From assembly GCF_056712565.1 (NCBI RefSeq), contig NZ_CM160072.1: 64,000 bases of DNA, one strand, 5' to 3'. Shown here one piece after another: positions 1-59,902 of this stretch (within the stretch, counting starts at the first letter, position 1; each line of letters starts with the position of its first letter). Made by a program: the position numbers and the translations under genes. The notes under the pieces were generated by a model, which saw only the letters and a list, made by a program, of their open reading frames with translations, did not search any database and was not told where the DNA came from.

Positions 1-1247
1 ATTGGCATCCAGGCAGCAATACCACTGGGATCGTTAGTGTGGATCACCCAGGAAATGATTGCAGAACCAACCAGTGGCGCGATCCCTCCGGCAATAACGG
101 CAGAAACTTCCCTTGCCAGTGCGACGCCAATATAACGATGGCGAGCACCAAAGAGTTCAGGCAGAAAAGCACCTTGTGCACCAAACATACCCCAGGCTCC
201 AATCCCTAAGGCCAGAGAAAGAGAGACAATAGTGACAGGAACATTACCGTGGCTGAAAGACCACCACACCGGAAAGGTAATCAACAACTGAAAAATCGCC
301 AGACTACGATAGACAAGAACCCTGCCGAAGCGATCGGTCAGCCAACCGGCAATAGGCACCATAATTGCACCGACTACTACCGCAGACATCAGGCATAGCG
401 TACCAACTGATTTGTCCAGCCCAACCACACCAACGATATAACTGATCGCTAAAGCCTGATAAATCGACGAGCCGCCGTTTTCTGCCAGACGTAAGCCAAT
501 CCCGACGAAGACATTACGGCGTGATGTTTTCAGCAAATTTCGTAAGGGTGATTCTGTAACTTGTTGACGAGCTTCGAGTTTTGCGAATGATGGCGATTCT
601 TTAAGATGCAGTCGAATATAAATAGCCACCGCGATAATCACCACGCTGGAGAGGAAGGGCAAGCGCCACCACCAGGTTTCGGCAAGATTTGTCACATTAT
701 GCAGCAGGATGAAGTAAACGGCAGATGCCATAAACGTACCAATCTGGATTCCGAGGAACGGCAGCGCGGCGTAATAACCCCGTTTGCCGTCAGGAGCATA
801 TTCGGTCATCAGTACGGCGGCTCCCGCCTGTTCAGCCCCAGCACCAAGCCCTTGCAGCAGGCGTAATGCAATAAGCATAATTGGCGCCCAGATTCCCGCT
901 GTTTCGTAAGTGGGTAATACCCCGATCAACGTGCTGGCGATTCCCATTAACAACACCGTTGCTAACAGGACGAACTTACGGCCCAAACGATCACCTAATG
1001 AGCCGAAGATAATTCCGCCTACAGGTCTGACGGCAAATCCGAGAAAGTAGGTGCCAAAACTGGCGATCAGCGCCATTCCCGGTTCCTGATTAGGAAAAAA
1101 GAGTGGACCAAAAATAATGGCGGATGCCAGGCTGTAAAGTGCGAAATCGTAGTATTCCAGTGCGCTGCCGAGAGAGCAGGTCCACGCCGCGCGACGCAGA
1201 TCTGCCGATGAAACATTCGCTTTCTCTGCTGGTTGTGAAGGTTGCAT
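1..1247 (-). CDS. MFS transporter, metabolite:H+ symporter (MHS; KgtP/ProP/ShiA-like) family; N-terminus at 1247, C-terminus beyond window start (partial)
   Basis: Own translation of the reverse strand from ATG (complement of 1245-1247) gives MQPSQPAEKANVSSADLRRAAW...; AAGGAG Shine-Dalgarno 6 nt upstream; MHS-type motifs EYYDFALY, RPVGGIIFGSLGDRLGRK and WLTDRFGR. Not in the ORF track because it runs off the window. Confidence 0.8.
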   Translation of the reverse strand, partial: MQPSQPAEKANVSSADLRRAAWTCSLGSALEYYDFALYSLASAIIFGPLFFPNQEPGMALIASFGTYFLGFAVRPVGGIIFGSLGDRLGRKFVLLATVLLMGIASTLIGVLPTYETAGIWAPIMLIALRLLQGLGAGAEQAGAAVLMTEYAPDGKRGYYAALPFLGIQIGTFMASAVYFILLHNVTNLAETWWWRLPFLSSVVIIAVAIYIRLHLKESPSFAKLEARQQVTESPLRNLLKTSRRNVFVGIGLRLAENGGSSIYQALAISYIVGVVGLDKSVGTLCLMSAVVVGAIMVPIAGWLTDRFGRVLVYRSLAIFQLLITFPVWWSFSHGNVPVTIVSLSLALGIGAWGMFGAQGAFLPELFGARHRYIGVALAREVSAVIAGGIAPLVGSAIISWVIHTNDPSGIAAWMP

Positions 1248-1337
1248 GATGTGTCTCCTTTCAGACGGATAAAAGAAATCCGCCTAAAATCAATGGGATT
1301 CTTGCGTTATTATTAAAATCCAAAATGAAATGCTAAG

Positions 1338-2117
1338 TTATCGAGCACTAAAGTGCGGTTGACGCTTCTCAGTAAATGCCTGACTGCCTTCATGAGCATC
1401 TTCAGTCGTGGCGGAAAAAGCGCCAGCCAGTGCTTCAAGCGTCGAGGCCACAGCAATACCTTCTCCGGCATCAATAACCTGCTTGGCGATCTGCACTGCA
1501 ACGGGAGCACGCTGGGCGATACGTTGTGCCAGTTGCAGTCCGGCGTCGTGTAACGCCTCCCTGGCGACAACGCGATTCACCAGCCCGCAGGACAGTGCCC
1601 GCTGTGCATCCAGTGGTTCACCGGTAAATACCAGTTCTTTCACCAGTGAGCGCCCAAGCAGTGCCGTCAGCCGCTGCGTTCCTGACCAGCCAGGCACTGT
1701 CGCCAGCCCGGTTTCTGGTAGTGCCATTTGTGCTTCGGCGCTACAAATACGGATATCGGTGGTAGCAGCCAGTTCCAGACCACCGCCATAAGCCAGGCCG
1801 TGCAACAGGGCGATTACGGGCTGTGGCAGTTGTGCCAGAGCATCAAATGCCTGATGACCGCGGCGGATCCAGTTGCGCCACATATCGAGTGCAGAAAGAG
1901 AGGTCCAGCGATGAATATCCGCGCCGACACAAAACGCTTTTTCACTGGCACTGGTCAGCAGTACTACGCGGATCTCCGAATCAGTTTCCAACGTGTGGCA
2001 ATGCGCCAGCAGTTGTTCGAGCATCTCTGGGGTTAATGCGTTGAGTTTTGCCGGGCGATTAATCACCAAAGTGGCAATGAAACCGTTGCGCTGGAGGTCA
2101 ATGGTGCCGTTATTCAT
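1338..2117 (-). CDS. enoyl-CoA hydratase/isomerase (crotonase superfamily)
   Basis: 259-aa ORF; crotonase-type motifs with both catalytic Glu positions (YGGGLELAATTD and ALPETGL); start overlaps the stop of the upstream CoA-transferase gene by 8 nt. Confidence 0.8.
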   Translation of the reverse strand: MNNGTIDLQRNGFIATLVINRPAKLNALTPEMLEQLLAHCHTLETDSEIRVVLLTSASEKAFCVGADIHRWTSLSALDMWRNWIRRGHQAFDALAQLPQPVIALLHGLAYGGGLELAATTDIRICSAEAQMALPETGLATVPGWSGTQRLTALLGRSLVKELVFTGEPLDAQRALSCGLVNRVVAREALHDAGLQLAQRIAQRAPVAVQIAKQVIDAGEGIAVASTLEALAGAFSATTEDAHEGSQAFTEKRQPHFSAR

Positions 2118-3681
2118 GGTGACGTCCTTGTTGAAAATAGTGGGGATTCATTAGTTTGAGATCGTCTGCCAGACGGAGTGGGGCATTGCTTTGGGCGAGA
2201 ATGTCGCGTTCAGGATCAATACCTGGGGCAATTTCCGTGACCAGTAGTCCGTCTGGGGTTAATTCCAGCACGCAGCGTTCAGTGATGTACTGCACTTGTT
2301 GCCCGAGTCTTATTGCGCGTTTGCCGGAGAACGTCACGTGGGCGACGTCCTGTACCAGTTTTTTGGCTTTGCCTTCTTTAATGATACGCAGCTGACCCTC
2401 TTCCAGTTGCAGTTGGGCACCGGCATTGAAAAAGCCAGAGAAAATAATGCGCTTCGCATGTGAGGTGATATCAATAAATCCACCGCATCCGGCAGTGACA
2501 TGTGGACGAGCGGGGAGATGTGAGACGTTCACTGAGCCATCTGCGCCGATTTGTAAAAACGACATCAGAGTGAGATCAAAGCCACCGCCCTGGAAATAGG
2601 TGAACTGCTGGGGAGAGGGCAAAAATGCTTCTGCATTAGAGGCACAACCGAACTGAAATTCCAGCAGTGGAACTCCGCCAATCGCGCCCTGTTCCAGCAG
2701 CCAGGTGACGTCACCGTGGCGACCTTGTTCCAGTAAAATGCGTGGTACGTTGGCAGAAATACCAAAGCCAATATTTACCGCATCTCCACTTTGTAGTTCT
2801 TGCGCGACTCGCTGGGCAATAACTCGCGCCGGGCCATGTTCCATATAACGAAAGGCTGATAGCGGACGACTGATTTCGCCGGAAATGGCAGGTTCATATT
2901 GCGTTTGTGTCGTTTGTGTTTGTTCCGGCGCAATCACGATGTAATCCACCAGTACACCCGGAATACGCACCTCTTTTGGTTTCAGACTTCCGGCGGCAAC
3001 CTGTCGTTTTACTTGCGCAATTATGATGCCACCATTATTGCGAACGGCAGTAGCCTGTTCCAGTGGCCCCAGATAAGCCCCTTCATGTTCATAAGTCAGG
3101 TTGCCGCGTTCATCGGCAGTGGTAGCGCGAATGATCGCCACCTGCGGCACGATACTGGGGAAAAACAGCCAGTCGTCGTTAGCAAATCGAACACGTTCAA
3201 CCAGAGATTGTTGCGCCGCTTTTTCATTCATTGCACCGCCCTGCAACAGGGGATCCACATAGGTATCCATGCCTGTTTGTGTCAGCACGCCAGGACGATG
3301 AGCCGCCGCTTCCCGGTGCATATCAAATAAGATCCCGGAAGGCAGATTCCAGGCGGGGATCGCGTTGTCATTGATCATTTGCCAGATTAACGGAGGCGCC
3401 ATTGATGATGGACCGGAGGGGTAGGAGCCAGCGATCACTTTTGCCAGTAAGCCCGGTTGCGCCAGATGATCGATGCCTTTTACGCCATACATATCACCAG
3501 CGGCGATAGGGTGGATGGAGGTGATGTTTTGCGGATGTCCGGCACGTTGAAAGCGTTCACCTATTGCTGCCAGCACCGCATCCGGACACCCCATTCCACT
3601 GGAGGAGGAGACGGTGACAACTGCGCCATCAACAATCAAATCTGCAGCTTCCGGTGCAGTGATCGTGCGTACAGAGCACAT
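2110..3681 (-). CDS. family I acyl-CoA:acetate CoA-transferase, fused alpha/beta (YdiF/Pct-like)
   Basis: 523-aa ORF; blocks AAAHRPGVLTQTGMDTYVDP, IRATTADERGNL and RIPGVLVDYIV align with E. coli YdiF as I recall it; E-x-G catalytic motif LLEQGAIGG; AAGGA SD before the ATG. Confidence 0.8.
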   Translation of the reverse strand: MCSVRTITAPEAADLIVDGAVVTVSSSSGMGCPDAVLAAIGERFQRAGHPQNITSIHPIAAGDMYGVKGIDHLAQPGLLAKVIAGSYPSGPSSMAPPLIWQMINDNAIPAWNLPSGILFDMHREAAAHRPGVLTQTGMDTYVDPLLQGGAMNEKAAQQSLVERVRFANDDWLFFPSIVPQVAIIRATTADERGNLTYEHEGAYLGPLEQATAVRNNGGIIIAQVKRQVAAGSLKPKEVRIPGVLVDYIVIAPEQTQTTQTQYEPAISGEISRPLSAFRYMEHGPARVIAQRVAQELQSGDAVNIGFGISANVPRILLEQGRHGDVTWLLEQGAIGGVPLLEFQFGCASNAEAFLPSPQQFTYFQGGGFDLTLMSFLQIGADGSVNVSHLPARPHVTAGCGGFIDITSHAKRIIFSGFFNAGAQLQLEEGQLRIIKEGKAKKLVQDVAHVTFSGKRAIRLGQQVQYITERCVLELTPDGLLVTEIAPGIDPERDILAQSNAPLRLADDLKLMNPHYFQQGRHHE

Positions 3682-3936
3682 AATAATTTCCTTGTTTCGA
3701 TATAAAAATAATTAAAAATATGCATTTAAAACAATATGATAATTTTCATAAATTAATTGGAACGATCTAATTTATGCGTAATTTGTACGATTAGGGTGTA
3801 AAAAACACAACAAGGGAAGTGCGAATCTGTGATCGAAACGACGATCTCCTGCGATCCCTTGCGTTAACGGATCGCATGAGTAAAAGGAGATTATGATAAA
3901 GTAATTGCCTTGATCTTATGGGGGTTTGGAGCAGGC

Positions 3937-4971
3937 ATGGCGAAGTCGGATACAGGAAGAAAGCGGGTAACATTAACCGATGTTGCGCGTGCGGCTGGCG
4001 TTTCGAAATCGACCGTATCGCTGGTTCTCAACGACAGTTCACTTATCAAAAAAGAGACTCAACAAAAAGTCCAGCAAGCCATTGAACAATTAGGCTATGT
4101 CTATAACCGTTTTGCTGCCAATCTGCGTTCGCAAAAATCGCTAACTATCGGCGTAGTCATTGACGATTTGATAAATCCTTTCTTCGCTGAATTTACTATG
4201 GGTCTTGAGATGACGCTGGCGGAGCACGGTTTTATCACCGTGATGTCCAATACCTCCCAGCGTAGTGACCGGCAAAAACAGGTGCTTGATACCTTGCTGG
4301 AACACCACGTCGCGGGCATTGTCCTCTGTCCAGTGAACAGTACCTCAGAAGCCGATTTACAGCGTTATGCCAACAGTTCCACACCCTTATTAATCACGAT
4401 GCGCCCTCTGGATTGGCAACAATTGCCCGTCGATTACGTTGGCGTGGACAGCCACGCAGGTGTACGGGAAGCGACGGAATATCTCATTCAACAAGGGCAC
4501 AGAGATATCGTGTTTATTGGTGGTCTTACGCACCATATGCGTTATCAGGGATACCTTGAGGCGATGAATCACCATGGTTTACAGCCGTGGAGTACTGATG
4601 CTTTTTCGCTGCGTGCTGAACCGACTCAGGCCAACGGCTACCAGTTGATGCAACAGCTGTTGGATATGCCTTCGCCACCCACAGCGGTGATTTGTTATAA
4701 CGATTTAATGGCTTTTGGCGCGGAGTCGGCACTAGGCGAAAGAGGATTATTTGCCGGGGAAGATATTTCGTTGATTGGTAATGATGGCGTGGCGGCTTGT
4801 GCTTACAGTAACCCGCCGTTAACCACAATTGCGGTAGAACCATTGGCTCTGGGGAAACAGGCGGCGCAGCAAATTTTACGGCGTATTGCGCAACCAGACG
4901 CACCGCTCAGCCATTACATCTATCGCCCGACCCTGCAAATTCGCGCTTCCACCGGAAAGCGGGGGCGTTAA
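3937..4971 (+). CDS. LacI/GalR-family transcriptional regulator, divergent from the CoA-transferase operon
   Basis: ORF-track ORF 3910-4971 trimmed to ATG 3937 (GGAG SD 5 nt upstream); N-terminal HTH VTLTDVARAAGVSKSTVSLVLN; periplasmic-binding-like effector domain. Confidence 0.8.
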   Translation: MAKSDTGRKRVTLTDVARAAGVSKSTVSLVLNDSSLIKKETQQKVQQAIEQLGYVYNRFAANLRSQKSLTIGVVIDDLINPFFAEFTMGLEMTLAEHGFITVMSNTSQRSDRQKQVLDTLLEHHVAGIVLCPVNSTSEADLQRYANSSTPLLITMRPLDWQQLPVDYVGVDSHAGVREATEYLIQQGHRDIVFIGGLTHHMRYQGYLEAMNHHGLQPWSTDAFSLRAEPTQANGYQLMQQLLDMPSPPTAVICYNDLMAFGAESALGERGLFAGEDISLIGNDGVAACAYSNPPLTTIAVEPLALGKQAAQQILRRIAQPDAPLSHYIYRPTLQIRASTGKRGR

Positions 4972-7613: not shown

Positions 7614-8171
7614 ATGTCTTATTCAGAAATCGCCGCGTGTCTGGCATACGCGGTTTCCGTCTGGCTGGCTGCCAGAAACAATGTGCATACATGGTGGATC
7701 GGCATAATTGGCAGCATATTGTACGGCTGGGTTTTTTGGTCTGTGCAACTCTATGCCGACGTTACGCTCCAGTTATTCTTCATCGCGACCAGCATCACTG
7801 GCTGGATCCACTGGCTGAAAGGTCAGGGTGGCGACATCTTGCCGGTGCGCCGAACGCAAGCCAGTCACTTTTTCCTTTTGTTGCTCTGTGCTGTCGTCGT
7901 GGCAGGCGGTTACGGCTTTTTACTCCACACCTTTACCAATGCCTGGGCACCCTGGCTGGATTCGTTGATTTTGACCTTTAGCGTTCTGGCACAATTCATG
8001 TTGATGGGAAGACGTATCGAAAACTGGTTCGTCTGGTTAGCGGTGAATACCCTGGCAGTGCCACTGTATATGACGCGCGGTTTAAACCTGACCGCTGGCT
8101 TATATTTCCTGTTCTGGATTAACGCCTGGCATGGTTTGTATCAATGGCGCAAAGAGTTGCAAACATCATGA
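7614..8171 (+). CDS. PnuC-family nicotinamide riboside transporter homolog (compact, 185 aa)
   Basis: Blocks VQLYADVTLQLFFIATSITGWIHW and RRIENWFVWLAVNTLAVPLY align with E. coli PnuC (IQLYASLLLQVFFFAANIYGWYAW; RKYVENWLLWVIINVISVV) as I recall it; GGGAGGG SD; begins 22 nt after the alr stop. Confidence 0.75.
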   Translation: MSYSEIAACLAYAVSVWLAARNNVHTWWIGIIGSILYGWVFWSVQLYADVTLQLFFIATSITGWIHWLKGQGGDILPVRRTQASHFFLLLLCAVVVAGGYGFLLHTFTNAWAPWLDSLILTFSVLAQFMLMGRRIENWFVWLAVNTLAVPLYMTRGLNLTAGLYFLFWINAWHGLYQWRKELQTS

Positions 8172-9166
8172 AGCCTTTTGCAACGGGCCTGGTGGTTGGT
8201 AAATTCGCGCCTTTGCATTGTGGTCATGAAAAGTTGATCAATACCGCACTGGCGCAATGTGAAGAACTGTTCATCATCAGTTATTCCGTGCCGGAAATGC
8301 CTGACTGTGAACCTGAAAAGCGCCTGACGTGGCTGCAAGTGCGCTTCCCGCAAGCGACGATTTTGGTACTGACGCCAGAGCTTGTTGCGCGTTATAACTT
8401 ACCTGCCATACCGCATAACGATGCCGACATCCACCGTCATTATGTGGCGACGCTGTGCCTGCAGATATTACGCTGTCGTCCACATGCTGTATTTACTGCA
8501 GAAGACTATGGCGATGGCTTTGCTAACGTGCTGGCGCGGCGTTTTGCCCAACCCGTTGAACACGTTCGAATGGCGCGCCCAGTTGGCGATGAAGCGCCTT
8601 CGGGAACGCTTATTCGTTCCGATGTTCACCGCTATCGCTACATGTTGGCGAATGATGTTTATTACAGTTTCGTTCGCCGTATCTGTCTGCTTGGTGGCGA
8701 ATCTACCGGTAAAAGCACGCTTTCAAAAGCGCTGGCGGATGGGCTTGATACGGTGTATGTCGCTGAATTTGGCCGCGACTATTGGGAAGAAAAAAACGGA
8801 ATCTTAACCGCGGATGATTTGTTGCATATCGCCTGCGAACAGGTACGCCGGGAACAACAAGCAGAAGCTAATCACTATCTTATATGTGACACGTCGCCAC
8901 TCACGACCTTGTTCTATGCCCTTGATCAATATGGTCATGCTCCGCAAGAACTTCATCAACTGGCGGAGCGGGAATACTCTCTGGTGGTGCTTTGCGGCGC
9001 AGAATTTCCCTTCGTGCAGGATGGCACCCGGCAAGGAGAGGTATTTCGCGCACGGCAACAGGTGTGGTATGAACAGGAATTATCGCGCAGGAATATTCCT
9101 TATCTTTCTGTTTCGGGTTCGCTGCAAGAGCGACTGGGGCAAATTCTACATCGCCTTCCCGACTGA
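8168..9166 (+). CDS. NadR-like bifunctional NMN adenylyltransferase / ribosylnicotinamide kinase lacking the N-terminal HTH domain
   Basis: ORF-track ORF 8144-9166 trimmed to ATG 8168, which overlaps the upstream TGA (ATGA coupling); nucleotidyltransferase motif GKFAPLHCGH; Walker A GGESTGKST; same domain order as NadR without the DNA-binding domain. Confidence 0.75.
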   Translation: MKPFATGLVVGKFAPLHCGHEKLINTALAQCEELFIISYSVPEMPDCEPEKRLTWLQVRFPQATILVLTPELVARYNLPAIPHNDADIHRHYVATLCLQILRCRPHAVFTAEDYGDGFANVLARRFAQPVEHVRMARPVGDEAPSGTLIRSDVHRYRYMLANDVYYSFVRRICLLGGESTGKSTLSKALADGLDTVYVAEFGRDYWEEKNGILTADDLLHIACEQVRREQQAEANHYLICDTSPLTTLFYALDQYGHAPQELHQLAEREYSLVVLCGAEFPFVQDGTRQGEVFRARQQVWYEQELSRRNIPYLSVSGSLQERLGQILHRLPD

Positions 9167-9247: not shown

Positions 9248-10441
9248 GTGTTTCAAAAAGTTGACGCCTACGCTGGCGACCCGATTCTTACGCTTATGGA
9301 GCGTTTTAAAGAAGACCCTCGCAGCGACAAAGTGAATTTAAGTATCGGTCTGTACTACAACGAAGACGGAATTATTCCACAACTGAAAGCCGTAGCGGAT
9401 GCGGAAGCGCGCCTGAATGCGCAGCCTCATGGTGCTTCGCTTTATTTACCGATGGAAGGGCTTAACAGCTATCGCCATGCCATTGCGCCGCTGCTGTTTG
9501 GTGCGGACCATCCGGTACTGCAACAACAGCGCGTAGCAACCATTCAAACCCTTGGCGGCTCAGGGGCATTGAAAGTGGGTGCAGATTTCCTGAAACGCTA
9601 CTTCCCGGAATCAGGCGTCTGGGTCAGCGATCCTACCTGGGAAAACCACGTAGCAATATTCGCCGGGGCTGGATTCGAAGTAAGTACTTACCCCTGGTAT
9701 GACGAAGCGACTAACGGCGTGCGCTTTAATGACCTGTTGGCGACGCTGAAAACATTACCTGCCCGCAGTATTGTGTTGCTGCATCCATGTTGCCACAACC
9801 CAACGGGTGCCGATCTCACTAATGACCAGTGGGATTCCGTGATTGAAATTCTCAAAGCCCGCGAGCTTATTCCATTCCTCGATATTGCCTATCAAGGATT
9901 TGGTGCCGGTATGGAAGAGGATGCCTACGCCATTCGCGCCATTGCCAGCGCTGGATTACCCGCTCTGGTGAGCAATTCGTTCTCGAAAATTTTCTCCCTT
10001 TACGGCGAGCGCGTCGGCGGACTTTCTGTTCTGTGTGAAGATGCCGAAGCCGCAGGCCGCGTACTGGGGCAATTGAAAGCAACCGTTCGCCGCAACTACT
10101 CCAGCCCGCCGAATTTTGGTGCGCAGGTGGTGGCTGCGGTGCTGAATGACGAGGCATTGAAAGCCAGCTGGCTGGCGGAAGTAGAAGAGATGCGTACTCG
10201 CATTCTGGCAATGCGTCAGGAACTGGTGAAGGTATTGAGCACAGAGATGCCAGAGCGCAATTTCGATTATCTGCTTAATCAGCGCGGCATGTTCAGTTAT
10301 ACCGGTTTAAGAACCGCTCAGGTTGACCGACTACGTGAAGAATTTGGTGTCTATCTCATCGCCAGCGGTCGCATGTGTGTCGCCGGGCTTAACGCGCAAA
10401 ATGTGCATCGCGTGGCAAAGGCGTTTGCTGCGGTGATGTGA
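9248..10441 (+). CDS. tyrB: aromatic amino acid aminotransferase TyrB
   Basis: 397 aa from GTG 9248 ([14 protein letters not shown]...), matching the K-12 length; PLP-lysine context [16 protein letters not shown]. Confidence 0.9.
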
Positions 10442-10449
10442 TTTTAATC

Positions 10450-10473
10450 AACAGGCGGATCTCTCCGCCTGTT
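10450..10473 (+). terminator. stem-loop after tyrB (10-bp stem, 4-nt loop, no clear U-tract)
   Basis: AACAGGCGGA-TCTC-TCCGCCTGTT read directly 9 nt after the tyrB stop. Confidence 0.4.
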
Positions 10474-10571
10474 CCTGACTCCAGCCATCCCCTACTATTC
10501 TGTCCCTTTTTTCGCCCACTTTTACATCATCTCTTTTCTATAAGTTTTTGAAAATTAGTGTTTTTAACTGT

Positions 10572-10587
10572 TGGTACGGATTGTGCA
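10572..10587 (+). promoter_or_regulatory. candidate sigma-54 (-24/-12) promoter for the 2-oxoglutarate dehydrogenase operon
   Basis: TGGTACGGATTGTGCA: GG and GC separated by 10 nt, two mismatches to TGGCACG-N4-TTGC; 36 nt upstream of the E1 ATG; an NtrC-family activator gene is in the same island. Confidence 0.55.
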
Positions 10588-10622
10588 GTAATGCGGCTGT
10601 CTATGACCATCAGGAGAAAAAC

Positions 10623-17187: not shown

Positions 17188-18060
17188 ATGAGCGTTTTGA
17201 TCAACAAACACACGCGGGTACTGGTGCAGGGCATTACCGGCAAAAACGGCACATTTCATACAGAGCAGGCTATTGCGTATGGCACGCAGATTGTGGGTGG
17301 AGTGACGCCAGGTAAGGGCGGGCAACGGCATCTGGATCGCCCGGTTTTTGATTCAATGAAAGAAGCGATGCGACAAACTGAGGCTGATGCCAGCGTGATT
17401 TATGTGCCTGCACCGTTTGTGCTGGATTCTGTTGTTGAGGCTATTGAAGCTGGCGTCAAATTGGTTGTGGTGATCACTGAAGGTGTACCGACACTGGATA
17501 TGGTGAAAGTTCGTCGGCTGCTTGACTGCCACCCGGATGTGCGGCTGATTGGGCCAAACTGCCCAGGAGTTATCACGCCGGGCGAGTGCAAAATCGGGAT
17601 TATGCCTGGTGAAATCCACCGCCCAGGGCGTATTGGGATTGTTTCCCGCTCCGGTACATTAACCTACGAAGCTGTAGCGCAAACCACGGCGCTGGGACTT
17701 GGGCAATCCACCTGTATTGGTATTGGCGGCGATCCGGTTCCGGGGACTAACTTTATTGATGCGCTGCGTTTATTCGAAAATGATCCGCAAACAGACGCGG
17801 TAATTATGATCGGTGAAATTGGTGGTAATGCGGAAGAACGGGCTGCGGAATTTATTCGTCATGAAATGAATAAACCGGTCGTAGGTTATATTGCCGGTGT
17901 TACTGCACCAAAAGGAAAACGCATGGGGCACGCCGGAGCCATTATTTCTGGCGGTAGCGGCAGTGCAGAGGATAAATTCCGTGCGTTCGATAAAGCAGGC
18001 ATGGCATGGACAAGAAACCCGGCGTTGCTTGGCGAAACGTTATGGAATGTTATTAAGTAA
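17188..18060 (+). CDS. succinyl-CoA synthetase alpha subunit paralog (SucD-like)
   Basis: 290 aa; CoA-binding N-terminus [14 protein letters not shown]; phosphohistidine region [17 protein letters not shown]. Confidence 0.9.
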
Positions 18061-18078
18061 TCCATAAATGAATATCAA

Positions 18079-18102
18079 GGGAGCATATCGCTCCCTTTTT
18101 TT
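18079..18102 (+). terminator. rho-independent terminator ending the dehydrogenase/synthetase operon
   Basis: GGGAGC-ATATC-GCTCCC followed by an 8-T run, 19 nt after the sucD-like stop. Confidence 0.65.
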
Positions 18103-18215
18103 ATCTGTGTGGTAAGGGAATCATCTTTTAATAACTGTGCGGAAAACCGCGCATAAAATAAAAAGGATAAATAGCTAACTCATTAAATAACAAAGCGTTA
18201 TTAAAAAATTAAAGA

Positions 18216-18231
18216 TGGCATAGCTCCTGCA
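18216..18231 (+). promoter_or_regulatory. candidate sigma-54 (-24/-12) promoter for the transporter / Ldh_2 operon
   Basis: TGGCATAGCTCCTGCA: GG-N10-GC, close to consensus; about 40 nt upstream of ATG 18272. Confidence 0.6.
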
Positions 18232-18271
18232 ATAGCCAGGCAGGTTTTTTATTTTTCACAATGAGGTGAAT

Positions 18272-19771
18272 ATGTCATCAATATCCCATGGCGCACCACA
18301 AAAGCGTCGAATTATCCCTAATCCCGGCCTGTGGTTGGCGATCATTGCCGGAATTATTATTACCCTTCTGCCACTGGGCGATACCTTGCCCGTCGCCGGA
18401 CAAAATATGATCGCCATTCTGGTGTTTGCCATTATTGTCTGGATCAGCGAAGCGATGGATTACACCGCCAGTGCAATTGTTATTTCCGCACTGATTATCT
18501 TTATGGTTGGTTTTGCCCCGGATATGAATCACCCGGACACGATCCTTGGCACCGCGAAAGCGCTGAAAATGACTCTGTCGGGTTTTTCTAATTCTGCTCT
18601 GGCGCTGGTGGCAGCAGCAATGTTTATCGCGGCGGCAATGACCATTACCGGGCTGGATAAACGCATTGCGCTGTTTACTATGTCGAAAATAGGTGCCAGC
18701 AGCCGCAGCATTATTATCGGTGCCATTGTGGTGACCATCGTCCTGAGCCTGGTTGTACCCAGTGCCACTGCCCGTACGGCTTGCGTGGTGCCGATTATGA
18801 TGGGGGTCATTGCGGCATTTAAGGTGGATAAACATTCACGTTTAGCGGCGTCAATGATGATTGTTATCGCCCAGGCGACCAGTATCTGGAACGTTGGTAT
18901 TCAAACTTCGGCGGCGCAAAACCTGCTTTCTATCGGTTTTATCAATAAAACTTTCGGCGCCGGGCATTCTGTCAGCTGGCTTGACTGGCTGTTAGCGGGC
19001 GCGCCCTGGAGCCTCACCATGTCGGTGATCCTCTATTTCCTCGCACGTAAATTGTTGCCGCCAGAAACGGAAGCTGTTGAAGGGGGGAGCGAGGCCATTA
19101 AAAAAGCACTCGCAGAGTTAGGGCCAACCACCGGTAAAGAAAAACGCTTGATCGGTATTTCGCTATTGTTACTGCTCTTTTGGTCTACTGGCGGAAAATT
19201 ACACAGTATTGATACCACCTCTGTCACCCTTGCCGGACTGGCGATTATGTTGCTGCCAGGCATCGGTGTAATGAGCTGGAAAGAGGTCGAAAAACGTGTG
19301 CAGTGGGGCACGTTGCTGATGTTTGGTATTGGTATCAGCCTGGGGTCCACGCTGCTTGATACGCAGGCAGCTTCATGGATGGCGAACTATGTGGTGAAAG
19401 GTTTTGGTCTTGATGGCTTGCCATCATTAGCCATCTTCGCGATTCTCGCCGCTTTCTTGATAATTATTCACCTGGGGTTTGCCAGTGCCACTGCGCTAAC
19501 TGCCGCATTGCTGCCCATCCTGATTAGCCTGTTAAGCAGTCTGCCGCCAGAACTCGGCGTTAACCCGGTCGGCATGACCATTCTGCTCGCCTTCAGTGTC
19601 AGTTTTGGCTTCATCCTGCCGATTAACGCGCCACAAAATATGGTGTGTATGGGTACGGATACCTTCACGCCACGCCAGTTTACCCGTGTGGGACTGTACC
19701 TGACGGTAATCGGCTACCTGTTGTTGCTACTGTTTGCCGCCACCTGGTGGAAAATTTTAGGTCTAATGTGA
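18272..19771 (+). CDS. anion permease (DASS/CitT-like ion-transporter superfamily), probable 2-oxoglutarate/dicarboxylate uptake
   Basis: ORF-track ORF 18266-19771 (GTG) trimmed to ATG 18272; polytopic hydrophobic 499-aa protein; island context. Confidence 0.75.
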   Translation: MSSISHGAPQKRRIIPNPGLWLAIIAGIIITLLPLGDTLPVAGQNMIAILVFAIIVWISEAMDYTASAIVISALIIFMVGFAPDMNHPDTILGTAKALKMTLSGFSNSALALVAAAMFIAAAMTITGLDKRIALFTMSKIGASSRSIIIGAIVVTIVLSLVVPSATARTACVVPIMMGVIAAFKVDKHSRLAASMMIVIAQATSIWNVGIQTSAAQNLLSIGFINKTFGAGHSVSWLDWLLAGAPWSLTMSVILYFLARKLLPPETEAVEGGSEAIKKALAELGPTTGKEKRLIGISLLLLLFWSTGGKLHSIDTTSVTLAGLAIMLLPGIGVMSWKEVEKRVQWGTLLMFGIGISLGSTLLDTQAASWMANYVVKGFGLDGLPSLAIFAILAAFLIIIHLGFASATALTAALLPILISLLSSLPPELGVNPVGMTILLAFSVSFGFILPINAPQNMVCMGTDTFTPRQFTRVGLYLTVIGYLLLLLFAATWWKILGLM

Positions 19772-19782
19772 GGAAACCAACG

Positions 19783-20856
19783 ATGTCATTACAAATTGCT
19801 GTTGAAAAAGTGCGTTGGTTAGCTGCCGGGCTGCTGGAACTTAATGGCTGTGATGCCGATATCGCTCAGGATGTGGCGGAACATATGATTGAAGCGGAAC
19901 GTTATGGCTTTGCCAGCCACGGCGTCACGCTGCTACCGAAATATCTGGAAAATATCGCTCGTGGCGATGTAACCGCGAATGCCCGCCCGGAATGCTTAAC
20001 AAGTGAAGGTAATTTACAACGTTTTCATGCCCACAATGGCTTTGGTCAACACGCCGGAAAAGTGGCGGTAAATGCTGCCATCGAACAAGCAAAACACCGC
20101 GGTTTTTGCCTGTTAACGTTGTGCCATGCGCATCATTTAGGGCGTATGGGGCATTACGGGCAAATGGTTGCTGATCAAGGCCTGGCGATGCTGGCCATGA
20201 GTAACGTCACCGGGCGTCCGGCACTGGTCGCCCCGTGGGGCGGTGCGGAACCGCGTATGACCACTAACCCTTTCTGCTTTGCCTGGCCGTTCAGTGATGG
20301 GCGTCCGCCGATTCTGGTTGATTTTGCCACCAGTAGCATGGCGCTAAATAAAGCACGGGTAATGTCGTCCACCGGGAAGCAGGCCGCGCCGGGACAATTG
20401 ATCGATGCACAGGGGAATCCAAGCAATGATCCTGGGGTGTTATTCAGCAATCCTCCAGGGGCGTTACTGCCATTTGGTGAGCATAAAGGATTTGGCCTGG
20501 CACTGATGATTGAAATGATGGCGGGGATCTTATCTGGTGGTGACACGATCGCCGAAGATCATCAGACGGATGGATCTGCGCATAATCATCTTTTTGCGTT
20601 GATTATCGATCCTGATCAATTCACCGATCTGGCAGGGGAGAAAGGGCAGTTCTTTGCGGATTATCTGTTAGCTACGCAGCCTCAACCTGGCGGCAATCCG
20701 GTGATTTACCCCGGTATGCCAGAAGCTGCCAACCGGGAACGCAATGCGAAGATGATTACGATCCCGGTATCATTCTGGTCCTGGATAGTTGAACATTACG
20801 CCCGCAAAGGTATCGATTTGGGGTTACATCCTCAGGAATCAGCATTAGCTGGATGA
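19783..20856 (+). CDS. Ldh_2-family (malate/L-lactate dehydrogenase 2 type) 2-hydroxyacid/2-oxoacid oxidoreductase
   Basis: ORF-track ORF 19645-20856 trimmed to ATG 19783 (GAGGAAA SD; the upstream extension would overlap the transporter gene); 357 aa. Confidence 0.7.
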   Translation: MSLQIAVEKVRWLAAGLLELNGCDADIAQDVAEHMIEAERYGFASHGVTLLPKYLENIARGDVTANARPECLTSEGNLQRFHAHNGFGQHAGKVAVNAAIEQAKHRGFCLLTLCHAHHLGRMGHYGQMVADQGLAMLAMSNVTGRPALVAPWGGAEPRMTTNPFCFAWPFSDGRPPILVDFATSSMALNKARVMSSTGKQAAPGQLIDAQGNPSNDPGVLFSNPPGALLPFGEHKGFGLALMIEMMAGILSGGDTIAEDHQTDGSAHNHLFALIIDPDQFTDLAGEKGQFFADYLLATQPQPGGNPVIYPGMPEAANRERNAKMITIPVSFWSWIVEHYARKGIDLGLHPQESALAG

Positions 20857-22203
20857 TTCTGGTCGATAAACTTGCGGTTGAATCTGATGTTTGTTGAGTT
20901 TGTCATATAAAGTCTTGCGCGGCAGCTGTAATAGCCGCGCTGTCAAACTGACTTGGCCTTCCGTTTGTCGCAGCATATCTTCGATTAACTTTTTCTCGAA
21001 AGCATCAATGCAGGCGGTAAGGCCACTCTCTTCTTGCTGAGTCATTGGCACTGGCTGGTGGTGGGTCAGTAAACCGAGAACAAAACGCTCTGCATTGTGT
21101 TTAAGTTCACGTACATTGCCAGGCCAACTTTGTGATTGCAACCAGGCCAGTAACATGGGAGAAATATCAGGCAGAGGACGATTATATTTTTGTGCCGCCT
21201 GACTGGCGAACCAGTAAAACAGTTCAGGGATATCTTCTCGTCGCTGGCGTAGAGGTGGAATATTCAAGCTAACCACATTCAGACGATAATAGAGATCGAG
21301 ACGAAACAGATGTTCTTCGCTGCGACGCAGTAAATCTTCCTTGGTCGCTGCAATAACACGGCAATTCACCGGAATTAATTGATTGGCACCTAATCGTTCA
21401 ATGGTTCTTTCCTGCAATACACGTAGCAGTTTTACCTGCATTCCTGATGGCATTCCCTCTATTTCATCGAGAAATAACGTACCACCATTTGCATGTTCAA
21501 TTTTTCCAATACGCTTTTTAACCGCACCGGTAAATGCGCCCGCCTCATGACCAAATATTTCGCTTTCAAACAACGTTTCTGGTAAGCCTGCACAGTTTAA
21601 GGCAACAAACTGCCCCTGACGGCGGGTACTCCAGTGATGCAGCATTCTGGCGACGACTTCTTTACCACAACCTGTTTCACCATAAATAAGGACATCGGCA
21701 CCGGTATCTGCGACATTAAGGATCATTTTACGCAGTTGTTGCATCTGCGGACTACGACCAATCAGCACCGGGCCATTTTCCTGTTGCAGATTCGCCAGTA
21801 ATTGCTGATTTTCTAAAACCAATCGCCGTTTTTCTACCGCTCTGGCAATAATACTCAATAATTTATCTGAGCTACTTGGTTTCTCAATGAAATCGAATGC
21901 ACCATTACGCATGGCATCCACCGCCATTTCCACGTCACCGTGTCCGGTAATTAAAATAACCGGAATTTTGCTATCCATTTCGTTGATGTAACTGAGGAGC
22001 TCTAGTCCTGATATTCCAGGTAACCTGACATCGGTCAGTATAATAATGTTGGCTTGACTTTGAATAAGGGGAATACTGTGTTCTGCATCGCAACAGGAAA
22101 TAACACGATAACCAGCCAGCGTGAGCGTTTGTTCACAGGCAAAACGTACATCGTCACTATCCTCAATATAAACTATAGTAATTTCACTGGATTTATTATT
22201 CAT
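20845..22203 (-). CDS. kguR: sigma-54-dependent response regulator (NtrC family); matches KguR of the alpha-ketoglutarate utilization island
   Basis: 452 aa; receiver domain (IILTDVRLPG); AAA+ Walker A GETGCGKE; GAFTGA motif; C-terminal HTH. Gene name recalled from the UPEC literature, not verified here. Confidence 0.85.
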   Translation of the reverse strand: MNNKSSEITIVYIEDSDDVRFACEQTLTLAGYRVISCCDAEHSIPLIQSQANIIILTDVRLPGISGLELLSYINEMDSKIPVILITGHGDVEMAVDAMRNGAFDFIEKPSSSDKLLSIIARAVEKRRLVLENQQLLANLQQENGPVLIGRSPQMQQLRKMILNVADTGADVLIYGETGCGKEVVARMLHHWSTRRQGQFVALNCAGLPETLFESEIFGHEAGAFTGAVKKRIGKIEHANGGTLFLDEIEGMPSGMQVKLLRVLQERTIERLGANQLIPVNCRVIAATKEDLLRRSEEHLFRLDLYYRLNVVSLNIPPLRQRREDIPELFYWFASQAAQKYNRPLPDISPMLLAWLQSQSWPGNVRELKHNAERFVLGLLTHHQPVPMTQQEESGLTACIDAFEKKLIEDMLRQTEGQVSLTARLLQLPRKTLYDKLNKHQIQPQVYRPESSS

Positions 22204-24016
22204 GTTCTTCTCCCCATTCAGGCCAGGTTAATGTCATTACTGCGCCGCCTTCAGGATGATTACTGGCGTGGAGTGCGCCGTTCGAATTTCGGACAATTTC
22301 GCTGACTATTGCCAGTCCCAACCCCATTCCTCTACGTTTAGTGGTAAAAAATGGTTCAAATATGCGATCGACAACTTCAGGTGCAAAACCGCCACCGCTG
22401 TCTTTAATGGTAATAATAACTTTGTTATTTGCCTGGCGAATGGCGATATCCAGTCGTTTGTAAGAGCTACCTTCCATAGAATCTAAGGCGTTGCTAATTA
22501 AATTACTGAATATCTGTTCAAGACCGAGCTCATCGCAATTGACAAATAACGGCATGGATGGGGCTTTTATTCGTCGCTCAATGTTATTTTTCTCCATGCT
22601 GTGATTAAGTAACGCCACGGCGCTATACATCACTTTGATGACATCGGCAGAACCTTTAGGTACGCGATGGCGCGAGGCAAATGCTTTAAGTTCGGAAATG
22701 AGCTGCGTCATCCGCTCAATCACTGAAATAATGTGTTTCAGATTCTGTTCAACCTGCGGATACATCTCTTTTTTTAGCATAGTACGCGCGTTATCAGTAA
22801 GTGCGTGAATGGCGGCTAACGGTTGATTTTGTTCATGGGCAATTTCGGTTGCCATCTGTCCAAGCGCCGCCAGTTTGCTGGACTCTGCCAGTTCACTACG
22901 CGTAATTTGTAATACTTGTTCAGCCTGACTGCGCTCTTTTATCTCCTGTATTAATTTTTGATTGATCAATTCCAGGGCAGATGTACGCTCTTTAACCTGT
23001 TTTTCTAATGTTTCATTCGCCAGTGTTAATAATTGTTGTGCATGAGATCGCATTCTCCAGTATTTAATAAATAACAAAAACAGCAGGTAAATAATTAGTG
23101 TAATGACTAACGAAATAGCCCATGACCAGTACAGGTTATCTAAGGGGACCATAATTGTCATTTTCCAGTTAAATTCTGGAATGGCTATTTGTTGCGTATA
23201 ATATTGCGGGAATAAACAGAGTTGTTCTTTTTTATCTTTCAGGAAAGTAAAATTGCTCACGGTATAACAGGGATAATAATCCGCCGGTAAAAGATTGTCG
23301 AGACTATATTGACGGGTAGATTGTAGTTTTTGTTTTGCCTGAACAGGTAACGGTTGCAGTGTTCGCATTCGCCATGGCGATTTTGAACTTAAAAATATAA
23401 TCCCATGTTCATCATTCACGATAATATTTTCAGGACCTTCGGCCCATGCTTTTTCAATTTCATTAAGACTTATTTTTACTACTACAACACCGACAATTTT
23501 TCCTTTATCTTTTATACTTGTAGAGAGGAAGAATCCCGGTGTATTTGTAGTGCTACCAATACCGTAAAAGCGTCCATTTAAGCCAGACATGGCGTGTTTA
23601 TAATAGGGGCGATAGCTATAATTTTGCCCTACATAGCTGCCGGGGTCCTGCCAGTTGCTAGAAGCGATGGCCTTACCTTGGGTATCCAGAATAAATATTG
23701 CTGCGGTTTTGAGTTGAGTATTGAAATGTGCAATTCGTTGATTGAGTTCGCTGGACGTCATATCGTCAGGCGTAATTACCGCCTGACGGATGATATGGTC
23801 TGTTGAGAGCATATAGGGTAAAACATAAAATTGCTCGATGGTGGAATATAATGTGGACTTATACATTTCAAGCCGCATTTTATCGGTACCGGACAAGGTA
23901 TTAAAACGCAAGTGCAAAAAAGCGATTGAAACCGCGAGCATGATAAGAAAAAGTGAAATGCTTGTAATGTGAAATCGCCATTTGTTCTTAAATATATAAT
24001 TCCACGATATTTTCAT
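22196..24016 (-). CDS. kguS: sensor histidine kinase (DctB-like, periplasmic sensing domain); matches KguS
   Basis: 606 aa; two TM segments flanking a roughly 270-aa periplasmic domain; H-box ATEIAHEQNQPLAAI; ATPase G-box DSGGGF; stop overlaps the kguR start by 8 nt. Confidence 0.85.
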   Translation of the reverse strand: MKISWNYIFKNKWRFHITSISLFLIMLAVSIAFLHLRFNTLSGTDKMRLEMYKSTLYSTIEQFYVLPYMLSTDHIIRQAVITPDDMTSSELNQRIAHFNTQLKTAAIFILDTQGKAIASSNWQDPGSYVGQNYSYRPYYKHAMSGLNGRFYGIGSTTNTPGFFLSTSIKDKGKIVGVVVVKISLNEIEKAWAEGPENIIVNDEHGIIFLSSKSPWRMRTLQPLPVQAKQKLQSTRQYSLDNLLPADYYPCYTVSNFTFLKDKKEQLCLFPQYYTQQIAIPEFNWKMTIMVPLDNLYWSWAISLVITLIIYLLFLLFIKYWRMRSHAQQLLTLANETLEKQVKERTSALELINQKLIQEIKERSQAEQVLQITRSELAESSKLAALGQMATEIAHEQNQPLAAIHALTDNARTMLKKEMYPQVEQNLKHIISVIERMTQLISELKAFASRHRVPKGSADVIKVMYSAVALLNHSMEKNNIERRIKAPSMPLFVNCDELGLEQIFSNLISNALDSMEGSSYKRLDIAIRQANNKVIITIKDSGGGFAPEVVDRIFEPFFTTKRRGMGLGLAIVSEIVRNSNGALHASNHPEGGAVMTLTWPEWGEEHE

Positions 24017-24196
24017 TCATCATCCATTGAATGCATTTATATTTATCATCAGTATATTCCCTGAACAATGTTTGCGAGAACCAAAAGAGTGCCATTGTGT
24101 GAATGTGTAAGCAGAATAACCGTGGCAATGTGTGGTTTATCGCACAGGTATTCCAAATGTGATCATGCTCTTTTTATGTGACAAATCCGCAGATAA

Positions 24197-25006
<810 letters not shown>

Positions 25007-32346: not shown

Positions 32347-32811
32347 ATGGAAAAGAAATTACCCCGCATTAAAGCGCTGCTAACCCCCGGCGAAGTGGCG
32401 AAACGCAGCGGTGTGGCGGTATCGGCGCTGCATTTCTATGAAAGCAAAGGGTTGATTACCAGTATCCGTAATAGCGGCAATCAGCGGCGATATAAACGTG
32501 ATGTGTTGCGATATGTCGCAATTATCAAAATTGCTCAGCGTATTGGCATTCCGCTCGCAACCATTCGTGAAGCGTTTGGCGTGTTGCCAGAAGGGCATAC
32601 GTTAAGTGCGAAAGAGTGGAAACAGCTTTCGTCCCAATGGCGAGAAGAGTTGGATCGGCGCATTCATACCTTAGTGGCGCTGCGTGACGAACTGGATGGA
32701 TGTATTGGTTGTGGCTGCCTTTCGCGCAGTGATTGCCCGTTGCGTAACCCGGGCGACCGATTAGGAGAAGAAGGTACCGGCGCACGCTTACTGGAAGATG
32801 AACAAAACTAA
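32347..32811 (+). CDS. soxR: redox-sensing MerR-family regulator SoxR
   Basis: 154 aa; [24 protein letters not shown]; [2Fe-2S] cysteine cluster [12 protein letters not shown]. Confidence 0.95.
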
Positions 32812-32840
32812 AGCGCCACAAGGGCGCTTTAGTTTGTTTT
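32810..32840 (+). terminator. soxR terminator stem-loop
   Basis: AAAGCGCC-ACAAG-GGCGCTTT followed by AGTTTGTTTT. Confidence 0.55.
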
Positions 32841-32955
32841 CCGGTCTTTGTCTTTCTCTCTATCCCGCTGGTACACAGGAGGGTTTCCCCCGACGTCAAC
32901 ACACCTCATTCGAGCACGTGGTGGAGGTTCCGGTTGGTGTTGATGCTTTAATTGT
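32815..32955 (-). ncRNA. ryjA: possible RyjA small RNA (position by synteny only)
   Basis: In K-12 a roughly 140-nt sRNA lies convergent to soxR just downstream of it; boundaries here are approximate and not supported by any motif I can read. Confidence 0.25.
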
Positions 32956-40699: not shown

Positions 40700-40905
40700 C
40701 CTTGCCGAATGTAGGCCGGATAAGGCGTTATACGCCGCATCCGGCAATCAATGCCTGATGCGACGCTGTCGCGTCTTATCAGGCCTACAGCCGTTGCCGA
40801 ATGTAGGCCGGATAAGGCGTTCACGCCGCATCCGGCAACCAGCGCCTGATGCGCCGCTGTCGCGTCTTATCAGGCCTACAAACCGTTACCGACTCGCATC
40901 CGGCA
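40700..40905. repeat. REP/BIME cluster: two tandem roughly 90-bp units of palindromic REP sequences between yjcH and acs
   Basis: Two near-identical units each containing GCCGGATAAGGCGTT...ACGCCGCATCCGGCA and TGCGACGCTGTCGCGTCTTATCAGGCCTAC palindromic cores. Confidence 0.85.
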
Positions 40906-52242: not shown

Positions 52243-52947
52243 TTAATCCATCCGATGTTCCCCCTTTTCCATGGCGTCGCGATCAAAAAATCGCTGAATT
52301 TTTCCCTCGGACATCAATGCCGCTCGATCAGACATATGCGCGATGACATCGGCATCGTGACTGACCAGCAGATATGTCATTTGGTGTTCCAGCTTAAGTT
52401 GATTCAACAAATTAAGGATTTCCGCTTGTACCGACATATCCAACGCCGAGGTGGGTTCATCCAGCAGAAGAAGTTGTGGTCGTAACAACAGGGCGCGAGC
52501 AATAACCACACGTTGCCGTTGACCACCGGAAAGCTGGTGTGGGTAGCGACGAGCGGCGTCGAAAGGCAAGCCAACCTGTTCCAGTGCAGTCTGGACGCGT
52601 TTTTCTATTTCTCTTTCGCCACGAATTTTGAGTGGTTCAGCCAGCGTTCGCCACAGAGTATGATTGGGATGCAACGAGGCATAGGGATCCTGAAACACCA
52701 TTTGCACATTGCGGCGGAGATCGCCTTGAAAACGCATTCCTGGTTTGATGGTGTGCCCAAACAGTGACACCTGACCGTGCCAGTCGCGCTGTAATCCAGC
52801 AATTACGCGCAAAATCGTGGATTTTCCGCAGCTTGATTCGCCAATTAAACTAAATGTCTCTCCGGCATTAACCGAAAAACTGGCGGCAGAAACTGCGGTT
52901 TTCTCAGCAAAAGTCACCTGTAAGTGATTAATTTCAACAATCGTCAT
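52243..52947 (-). CDS. ABC transporter ATP-binding protein (short, NikE-type)
   Basis: 234 aa; Walker A GESSCGKST; signature LSGGQRQR; Walker B LLLLDEPTSALD; no C-terminal oligopeptide-transporter extension. Confidence 0.85.
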   Translation of the reverse strand: MTIVEINHLQVTFAEKTAVSAASFSVNAGETFSLIGESSCGKSTILRVIAGLQRDWHGQVSLFGHTIKPGMRFQGDLRRNVQMVFQDPYASLHPNHTLWRTLAEPLKIRGEREIEKRVQTALEQVGLPFDAARRYPHQLSGGQRQRVVIARALLLRPQLLLLDEPTSALDMSVQAEILNLLNQLKLEHQMTYLLVSHDADVIAHMSDRAALMSEGKIQRFFDRDAMEKGEHRMD

Positions 52948-55645: not shown

Positions 55646-55691
55646 GATCTTTCCATACAGTGATAAATCAGCGGCTGGCCTGCAATACAGG

Positions 55692-55725
55692 CCAGCCCTG
55701 GTACCGCGCCCGGTAACAGGGCTGG
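55692..55725 (-). other. intra-operon stem-loop between the binding-protein gene and the first permease gene
   Basis: CCAGCCCTG-(16 nt)-CAGGGCTGG, 9-bp stem, read directly. Confidence 0.5.
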
Positions 55726-55744
55726 ACGCGAGTTGCATACAGGG

Positions 55745-59886: not shown

Positions 59887-59902
59887 TGCATCTTTTATGC
59901 CA
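59887..59902 (-). promoter_or_regulatory. sigma-54 promoter of fdhF (FhlA-dependent)
   Basis: Minus strand reads TGGCATAAAAGATGCA (GG-N10-GC), about 50 nt upstream of the fdhF ATG. Confidence 0.8.

Follow-up and report, generated by a model that had tools for sequence, protein, structure and literature searches.

A sigma-54 promoter before the c5038 transporter gene of the ExPEC alpha-ketoglutarate island: a rediscovery with small additions to its enhancer map

Is a near-consensus 16-mer upstream of a transporter gene a genuine sigma-54 promoter, and if it is, which activator sites serve it and which genes belong to its transcription unit? The question is raised by a 64,000-nucleotide stretch of DNA (the window; all coordinates are those of the window), in which an earlier note, made from the letters alone, had placed a second, near-consensus sigma-54 promoter before a unit of a transporter gene and an Ldh_2 gene. 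The sequence in question, TGGCATAGCTCCTGCA, occupies exactly positions 18216 to 18231 of the + strand. Its GG (18217-18218) and GC (18229-18230) form GG-N10-GC, the exact spacing of -24/-12 elements, and it agrees with the extended consensus TGGCAC-N5-TTGCW at 14 of 16 positions, departing from it at -20 (T for C) and at -15 (C for T). Forty nucleotides lie between the end of the motif and the ATG of the DASS-family transporter gene (18272, RefSeq annotation), and a Shine-Dalgarno sequence, GAGGTG, precedes this ATG at 18263-18268. The sequence and its distance to the start codon are as the earlier note described them. We hold with high confidence that this 16-mer serves c5038-c5039, an operon in the alpha-ketoglutarate island of ExPEC, as its sigma-54 (-24/-12) promoter. 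The coordinates of the promoter, its neighboring genes, and the other elements discussed below are collected in Table 1.

Table 1. Positions of the c5038 promoter, associated sites, and genes in the window
Feature	Position	Strand	Basis or remarks
Second sigma-54-type motif, TGGTACGGATTGTGCA	10572-10587	+	Predicted; 51 nt ahead of the c5032 (E1) start codon, ATG at 10623
Conserved degenerate KguR-like 18-mers, TGTTCCTGACTCCAGCCA and TGTCCCTTTTTTCGCCCA	10470-10487 and 10501-10518	+	Spaced by 31 bp; precede the c5032 promoter
Intrinsic terminator of the c5032-c5037 (E1-E2-E3-sucC-sucD) operon	18077-18104	+	Terminator scan
Distal KguR-like site, TGTGTGGTAAGGGAATCA	18106-18123	+	Center approximately -127.5; conserved TGTGYGG, PWM
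Proximal KguR site, inverted repeat TGTGCGGAAAACCGCGCA(TA)	18136-18155	+	Center approximately -97.5; published in CFT073
IHF-like site, TAACAAAGCGTTA	18188-18200	+	1 mismatch to WATCAANNNNTTR; AT-rich spacer, center approximately -48
Sigma-54 (-24/-12) promoter core of c5038-c5039	18216-18231	+	TGGCAT-AGCTC-CTGCA
Transcription start site, A	18242	+	5'-RACE in CFT073 (PMC5318444), mapped onto the window
c5038, DASS-family anion symporter, 499 aa	18272-19771	+	Pfam Na_sulph_symp 1e-117; NCBIfam dass; RefSeq
c5039, Ldh_2-family oxidoreductase, second gene of the unit	19783-20856	+	Pfam Ldh_2 4.5e-94
kguR (c5040), NtrC-family response regulator/bacterial enhancer-binding protein	20845-22203	-	Pfam, translation
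kguS (c5041), sensor histidine kinase	22196-24016	-	Pfam dCache_1, HisKA, HATPase_c

The sequence match alone is statistically unremarkable in 64 kb. When two mismatches to the consensus were allowed, there were 54 matches in the window compared to 45.5 expected, and the stricter pattern TGGCAY-N5-YTGCW matched once compared to 0.62 expected; neither count is significant, and we rejected motif counting as proof. The looser pattern TGGCAY-N6-TGCW matched only twice in 128 kb (both strands, 0.44 expected), at 18216 and at 59887-59902 on the - strand near fdhF. This other match, TGGCATAAAAGATGCA, precedes the start of fdhF (CDS 57688-59835, - strand) by 52 nt and is the classic textbook promoter of that gene, dependent on FhlA and sigma-54. 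It serves as an internal positive control and has the same number of mismatches as the site at 18216. The selenocysteine insertion element of fdhF was detected separately (Rfam SECIS_2, 87 bits, 59369-59423, - strand). What sets the match at 18216 apart from chance is its position, orientation, and conservation, and the real support for the promoter is its context, its conservation, and published experiments.

The genes flanking the motif identify the region as the c5032-c5041 "alpha-ketoglutarate island" of CFT073, which is located between tyrB and aphA. From tyrB to aphA, the order is E1-E2-E3 of 2-oxoglutarate dehydrogenase, sucC, sucD, the DASS transporter gene, and the Ldh_2 gene, followed on the opposite strand by kguR and kguS; Pfam domains and the RefSeq annotation of the identical NU14 region both give this gene content. 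The transporter c5038 has been characterized as an anaerobic alpha-ketoglutarate importer (PMC5318444). KguR contains the Pfam domains Response_reg, Sigma54_activat (AAA+, 1e-67), and HTH_8 (Fis-type HTH), has a GAFTGA loop in its translation, and finds its best PDB match among NtrC-family regulators; its gene, 2.6 kb downstream of the promoter at 18216, is that of the cognate enhancer-binding protein. Residues 41 to 292 of KguS (periplasmic) match the DctB structures 2zbb (E 6e-33) and 3e4o (E 4e-32). The NCBIfam equivalogs for KguR, KguS, and Ldh_2 all fell below their curated cut-offs, therefore these three proteins allow no finer naming. The 3' ends of the Ldh_2 gene (+ strand) and kguR (- strand) overlap convergently by 12 bp (20845-20856), which leaves no room for a terminator in either unit before it runs antisense into the other.

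Experiments on this promoter have been published for CFT073. By 5'-RACE, transcription of c5038 begins at an A in position -30 relative to the start codon (PMC5318444; Cai et al. 2017, Front Microbiol 8:275). On the window, this start at A18242 sets the GG at -25/-24 and the GC at -13/-12, such that G18218 is -24 and C18230 is -12. In the same study, the authors noted the -24/-12 motif of c5038, deletion of rpoN abolished the induction of c5038 by alpha-ketoglutarate and was complemented, His6-RpoN shifted Pc5038 and PglnA in EMSA but did not shift PxylA, and the promoter/intergenic fragment drove lacZ by itself from a plasmid (PMC5318444). RT-PCR in a previous study showed c5032-5037 and c5038-5039 to form two distinct operons (PMC3694859; Cai et al. 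2013, PLoS Pathog 9:e1003428). Both operons were induced by alpha-ketoglutarate under anaerobiosis, deletion of kguR (c5040) abolished expression of the lacZ fusions of both, and KguR shifted promoter fragments of both (PMC3694859). The promoter reading offered by the earlier note is thus upheld by a start site that fits it, by the loss of c5038 expression in the rpoN deletion, and by the shift of the DNA with RpoN (PMC5318444, CFT073). By the same token, the finding is correct yet already known: the promoter was mapped and tested in CFT073 in 2017, and ours is a rediscovery. One published statement sits oddly with the c5038 lacZ data. In the 2021 RNA-seq report, mutation of kguR is said to have strongly lowered the expression of the genes of the island, "except c5038" (PMC8716947).

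All of these promoter experiments come from CFT073, and the window carries a different allele of the intergenic region. The 16-nucleotide core is the same in both, and an alignment of the two sequences is identical from 18180 through the ATG; because of this identity, the published start site and promoter results transfer directly, and the window's allele is predicted to be active. Upstream of 18180, there are 10 substitutions between 18117 and 18179, including 18154 within the published KguR 20-mer and 18117 within the distal KguR-like site, and all 10 are confined to the stretch that runs from the distal KguR-like site to the IHF-like one. We detected the island in 1,045 of 5,426 complete E. 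coli genomes. Among 1,044 island-bearing complete genomes, the sucD-DASS intergenic allele is of the CFT073 type in 864 and of the window type in 176 (carriers include NU14, ATCC 11775, and APEC O18), and the two types are approximately 94% identical. The allele of E. albertii is CFT073-like. A MAG contig labeled "Citrobacter sp.," with 98 to 100% protein identity to the E. coli island and a promoter allele of the CFT073 type, looks mis-binned.

The window as a whole is collinear with E. coli NU14, with seven mismatches in 64 kb. Compared to the K-12 gene order, three blocks are presumably strain-specific insertions: 1-4971, 7614-9166, and 52243-57313. The first contains genes for an MFS transporter, an enoyl-CoA hydratase, a CoA transferase, and a LacI regulator before dnaB; the second contains pnuC and an AAA ATPase gene between alr and tyrB; and the third contains a five-gene ABC transporter between yjcO and fdhF. 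Rfam matches in the window included the sraL sRNA (32804-32944, - strand, 153 bits) and two adjacent naRNA4 (REP-derived) elements (40714-40876, + strand).

To compare the locus across taxa, we scanned for the transporter protein in one genome per species, which gave 16 loci, and determined their gene content by tblastn. The pentamers TGGCA and CTGCA are invariant in eight taxa from Escherichia to Vibrio, and the six bases between them vary. The pattern TGGCAY-N5-CTGCA lies 56 to 60 nt before the ATG in all eight full-length DASS loci with kguRS, and six DASS loci that are more distant and have no kguRS (in Burkholderiales, Azotobacter, and others) all lacked such a motif. The same nine-gene set occurs in Citrobacter spp., Klebsiella indica, Entomohabitans, and Pectobacterium zantedeschiae; the E. 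albertii contig starts just upstream of the transporter gene and covers the DASS-to-aphA part only. In the stretch of Vibrio sp. Y2-5 that we examined, DASS-Ldh_2 comes first, followed by kguRS and then by E1, E2, and E3. Uptake and catabolism are physically separate in this Vibrio, where the transporter unit has retained a promoter and upstream sites of its own. A contig labeled "Flavobacteriia bacterium MAG" is almost identical to Vibrio sp. Y2-5 and looks mis-binned. Ldh_2 adjoins DASS in every related kguRS-bearing locus that extends past DASS. In Paraburkholderia loci and a Proteobacteria MAG, the DASS gene and an Ldh_2 gene (47 to 49% identity) are adjacent in the absence of kguRS, the dehydrogenase genes, and the sigma-54 motif, which makes the transporter-oxidoreductase pair a module older than the island.

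The KguR site of c5038 is given as TGTGCGGAAAACCGCGCACA in PMC8716947, where a probe without this site is reported to be unbound by KguR in EMSA. In the window, this 20-mer has one difference, a T for C at 18154 that changes CGCACA to CGCATA, and the inverted repeat TGTGCG-GAAAAC-CGCGCA (18136-18153) fits the published pattern TGTG(T/C)G-N5-15-C(G/A)C(G/A)CA. The columns TGTG.GG...C.C..A of this proximal site are invariant in eight taxa, its PWM score is 24.6 bits, and in every taxon it begins upstream of TGGCA, at a distance of 79 to 82 bp from the T.

A distal KguR-like site, 30 bp from the proximal one in E. coli, combines a good left half with a degenerate right half (2.5 bits in E. coli). 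In all Enterobacterales loci, the 18-mer containing TGTGYGG begins upstream of TGGCA, 110 to 112 bp from the T, and when ranked with a PWM trained on strong sites, it is the second-best match in six of the seven taxa scanned, Vibrio included; in Pectobacterium, it is third, with a low score. The text of three KguR papers makes no mention of it. The probe used for EMSA in 2013 begins at -163 relative to the ATG (PMC3694859), which corresponds to 18109, therefore the probe cuts into the distal site. Because the probe without the proximal site was not shifted (PMC8716947), the distal site is at best weak by itself. Both activator sites, centered at -97.5 and -127.5, fall within 80 to 150 bp upstream of the start, and their positions are conserved. 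Between them and the core, the columns A.A.CA......TA of the IHF-like site are conserved in the alignment of transporter promoters, and Entomohabitans has a perfect AATCAATAAATTA (a match to WATCAANNNNTTR) at this position. The term "IHF" occurs zero times in PMC5318444. We infer that 18188-18200 is a putative DNA-bending site for IHF.

The c5032 operon has a comparable arrangement. Before its E1 gene, the motif TGG(T/C)A(C/T)-N5-(C/G)TGC(A/T) is conserved in seven taxa and takes the form TGGTAC-N5-GTGCA here, which points to a c5032 promoter that uses sigma-54, with a predicted start near 10598. Neither of two papers in which c5032 and RpoN are both named describes an rpoN test of c5032. The published KguR site of c5032, TGTGTG-N13-CGCGCA at 10374-10398, did not withstand comparison: it falls within the tyrB coding sequence, Citrobacter has no counterpart of its right half, and K-12, which does not have the island, carries its left half as ordinary tyrB sequence. 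Judging from these comparisons, it is probably not a functional site for c5032. The two 18-mers at -102 and -71 from the c5032 motif (10470 and 10501) appear to be better candidates. With a PWM trained only on DASS and kguS sites, they are the top two matches in E. coli, Citrobacter, K. indica, and Pectobacterium; the pair in E. coli has a P value of 0.006 relative to shuffled sequences, and a site of this type in Vibrio, at about -110, scores 18 bits.

The region upstream of kguSR (24017-24292, - strand) also contains a strong KguR 18-mer, TGTGCGATAAACCACACA (24129-24146), which is conserved in six taxa, and a conserved -10-like hexamer, TATACT. As a candidate sigma-54 promoter for kguSR, we considered TGGCACTCTTTTGGTT (24079-24094, - strand) and rejected it; the -12 GC is missing, and E. 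albertii, Citrobacter, and K. indica do not conserve the sequence. This third unit of the island does not look sigma-54 dependent. The published positive autoregulation of kguSR would thus be an instance of a sigma-54 activator acting at an apparent sigma-70 promoter.

Downstream of the end of sucD at 18060, the terminator consists of a GC-rich hairpin of 8 to 9 bp (18077-18097) followed by a T7 run to 18104. The hairpin has a dG of -13.9 kcal/mol (z = -4.0), none of 200 shuffled sequences folds as well, and an equivalent hairpin and T-run follow sucD in Citrobacter. Another potential hairpin covers the -12 element and the start site (CCTGC...GCAGG with a T-run, 18226-18256); with a dG of -6.6 kcal/mol, z = -0.29, and 71 of 200 shuffled sequences equal to it, we rejected it as a terminator or attenuator. 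An Rfam search of the whole window at the gathering threshold returned nothing in or near 18060-18272.

These observations bear on the wider organization proposed in the earlier note. The terminator, given there as 18079-18102, was essentially right and is strong, and the separate transcription units agree with the two operons found by RT-PCR (PMC3694859) and with the terminator between them. Of the proposed two sigma-54 units, that of c5038 is experimentally proven, and that of c5032 has comparative support in its conserved motif. The division into uptake and catabolism survives as two KguR-dependent operons, but the uptake unit also carries Ldh_2, and kguSR constitutes a third unit. The idea of a shared upstream activator motif was borne out by a search that found KguR-like sites before both c5038 and c5032.

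Taken together, the elements suggest how the promoter would operate. Sigma-54 RNA polymerase would bind the GG at 18217-18218 and the GC at 18229-18230 as a closed complex that cannot open the DNA alone. External alpha-ketoglutarate under anaerobiosis would be sensed by the DctB-like kinase KguS, which would phosphorylate KguR. KguR would then bind the inverted repeat at 18136-18155 and, probably in a cooperative manner, the weaker site at 18106-18123, three helical turns upstream. As KguR oligomerizes, the AT-rich spacer would probably be bent by IHF at about -48, bringing the GAFTGA loop into contact with the polymerase, and ATP hydrolysis would open the promoter for transcription from A18242. 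The terminator at 18077-18104 would insulate the c5038 unit from the upstream dehydrogenase/succinyl-CoA synthetase operon, which would be expressed from its own conserved sigma-54-type motif at 10572-10587. In CFT073, the start site, the rpoN dependence, the binding of RpoN and of KguR (proximal site), the KguR dependence, and the existence of two operons are experimental (PMC5318444, PMC3694859, and PMC8716947).

Could c5038-c5039 instead be mainly the tail of a long operon read from the c5032 promoter, with 18216 as a minor internal promoter at most? All seven genes are co-oriented and are co-induced by alpha-ketoglutarate and KguR, and full efficiency is rare among intrinsic terminators. 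However, the terminator here is strong, RT-PCR detected two operons (PMC3694859), the intergenic fragment alone drives lacZ and 5'-RACE places a start at 18242 (PMC5318444), and in Vibrio the units are physically apart and the transporter unit retains its promoter. We consider a long operon very improbable. We give even less credence, practically none, to the notion that the match at 18216 is a chance occurrence and that a sigma-70 promoter in the AT-rich intergenic region drives the transporter gene. This notion draws on the fact that two-mismatch matches are as frequent as chance predicts and on the very AT-rich composition of 18157-18215, of a kind that often gives -10-like hexamers. Against it, a search of the + strand from 18100 to 18271 found no sigma-70-like promoter, and the blocks at -24 and -12 do not vary across eight taxa while their flanks diverge; it is already refuted by the published rpoN deletion, which abolished expression (PMC5318444).

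A closer contest concerns the enhancer. The sigma-54 promoter could be activated through a single KguR site without IHF; the conservation of the distal 18-mer and of the IHF-like site would then have other causes, for example the terminator context or AT-rich curvature. Published work invokes one site only, and the probe without that site was unbound (PMC8716947). Moreover, the right half of the distal site is poor in E. coli (2.5 bits), and the IHF-like site is putative and one mismatch from its consensus. On the other side, five genera retain TGTGYGG at -110 to -112 even though the intervening sequence diverges, and a layout of two sites 30 to 31 bp apart recurs at the c5032 promoter. Tandem sites are also the rule for activators of the NtrC/DctD type. 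We therefore take activation through a single site seriously without favoring it. Our own preference, a slight one, is for two KguR sites 30 bp apart and an IHF-like bend at c5038, together with a degenerate two-site layout (10470-10487 and 10501-10518) that serves the c5032 sigma-54 promoter and replaces the non-conserved site inside tyrB.

The promoter controls anaerobic uptake of alpha-ketoglutarate, which is an abundant metabolite of the kidney, and UPEC owes part of its fitness in the mouse urinary tract to the transporter and its regulators (PMC3694859, PMC5318444). The significance of the promoter for UPEC is therefore already in the literature. The present analysis indicates that a real sigma-54 promoter was recognizable from sequence alone and that the promoter and its module are conserved from Escherichia to Vibrio. 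Beyond the literature, it makes small additions: the distal site at 18106-18123, the IHF-like site, and the sigma-54 motif and weak KguR-like sites of c5032. For c5038, the enhancer map as published is probably incomplete, and for c5032, it is probably misplaced, which matters only to those dissecting the KguS/KguR regulon.

Among known systems, Pc5038 of CFT073 is the same promoter; the genes, the island between tyrB and aphA, and KguS/KguR are all shared, and the window differs in having the less common allele, with its 10 substitutions at 18117-18179. The fdhF promoter, activated by FhlA, resembles the promoter at 18216 in its class, its number of mismatches, its distance of approximately 50 nt to the start codon, and its service to anaerobic metabolism. 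It differs in that FhlA responds to formate and is not a response regulator, and fdhF belongs to the E. coli core genes and not to an island. MifS/MifR of Pseudomonas aeruginosa is, like KguS/KguR, an alpha-ketoglutarate-responsive two-component system with a bEBP as its regulator. Its transporter, PA5530, belongs to a family different from DASS and is not known to have a linked dehydrogenase operon. The PA5530 gene requires RpoN, according to Lundgren et al. 2014 as cited in PMC5318444.

The dctA/DctB/DctD system of Rhizobium and Sinorhizobium is alike in several respects: a DctB-type sensor with a periplasmic double-Cache domain (KguS matches 2zbb with an E value of approximately 6e-33), an activator of the NtrC family of bEBPs, and a sigma-54 promoter for a dicarboxylate transporter, with the activator acting from upstream inverted repeats. 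DctD binds tandem sites about three helical turns apart. The KguSR system differs in its ligand, the C5 acid alpha-ketoglutarate rather than a C4-dicarboxylate, and in its transporter, which belongs to DASS/Na_sulph_symp and not to the SDF family of DctA. Unlike DctD, KguR also drives a full 2-oxoglutarate dehydrogenase/succinyl-CoA synthetase operon. KguS/KguR therefore works in the manner of DctB/DctD at dctA but with a DASS transporter, as a system distinct from it.
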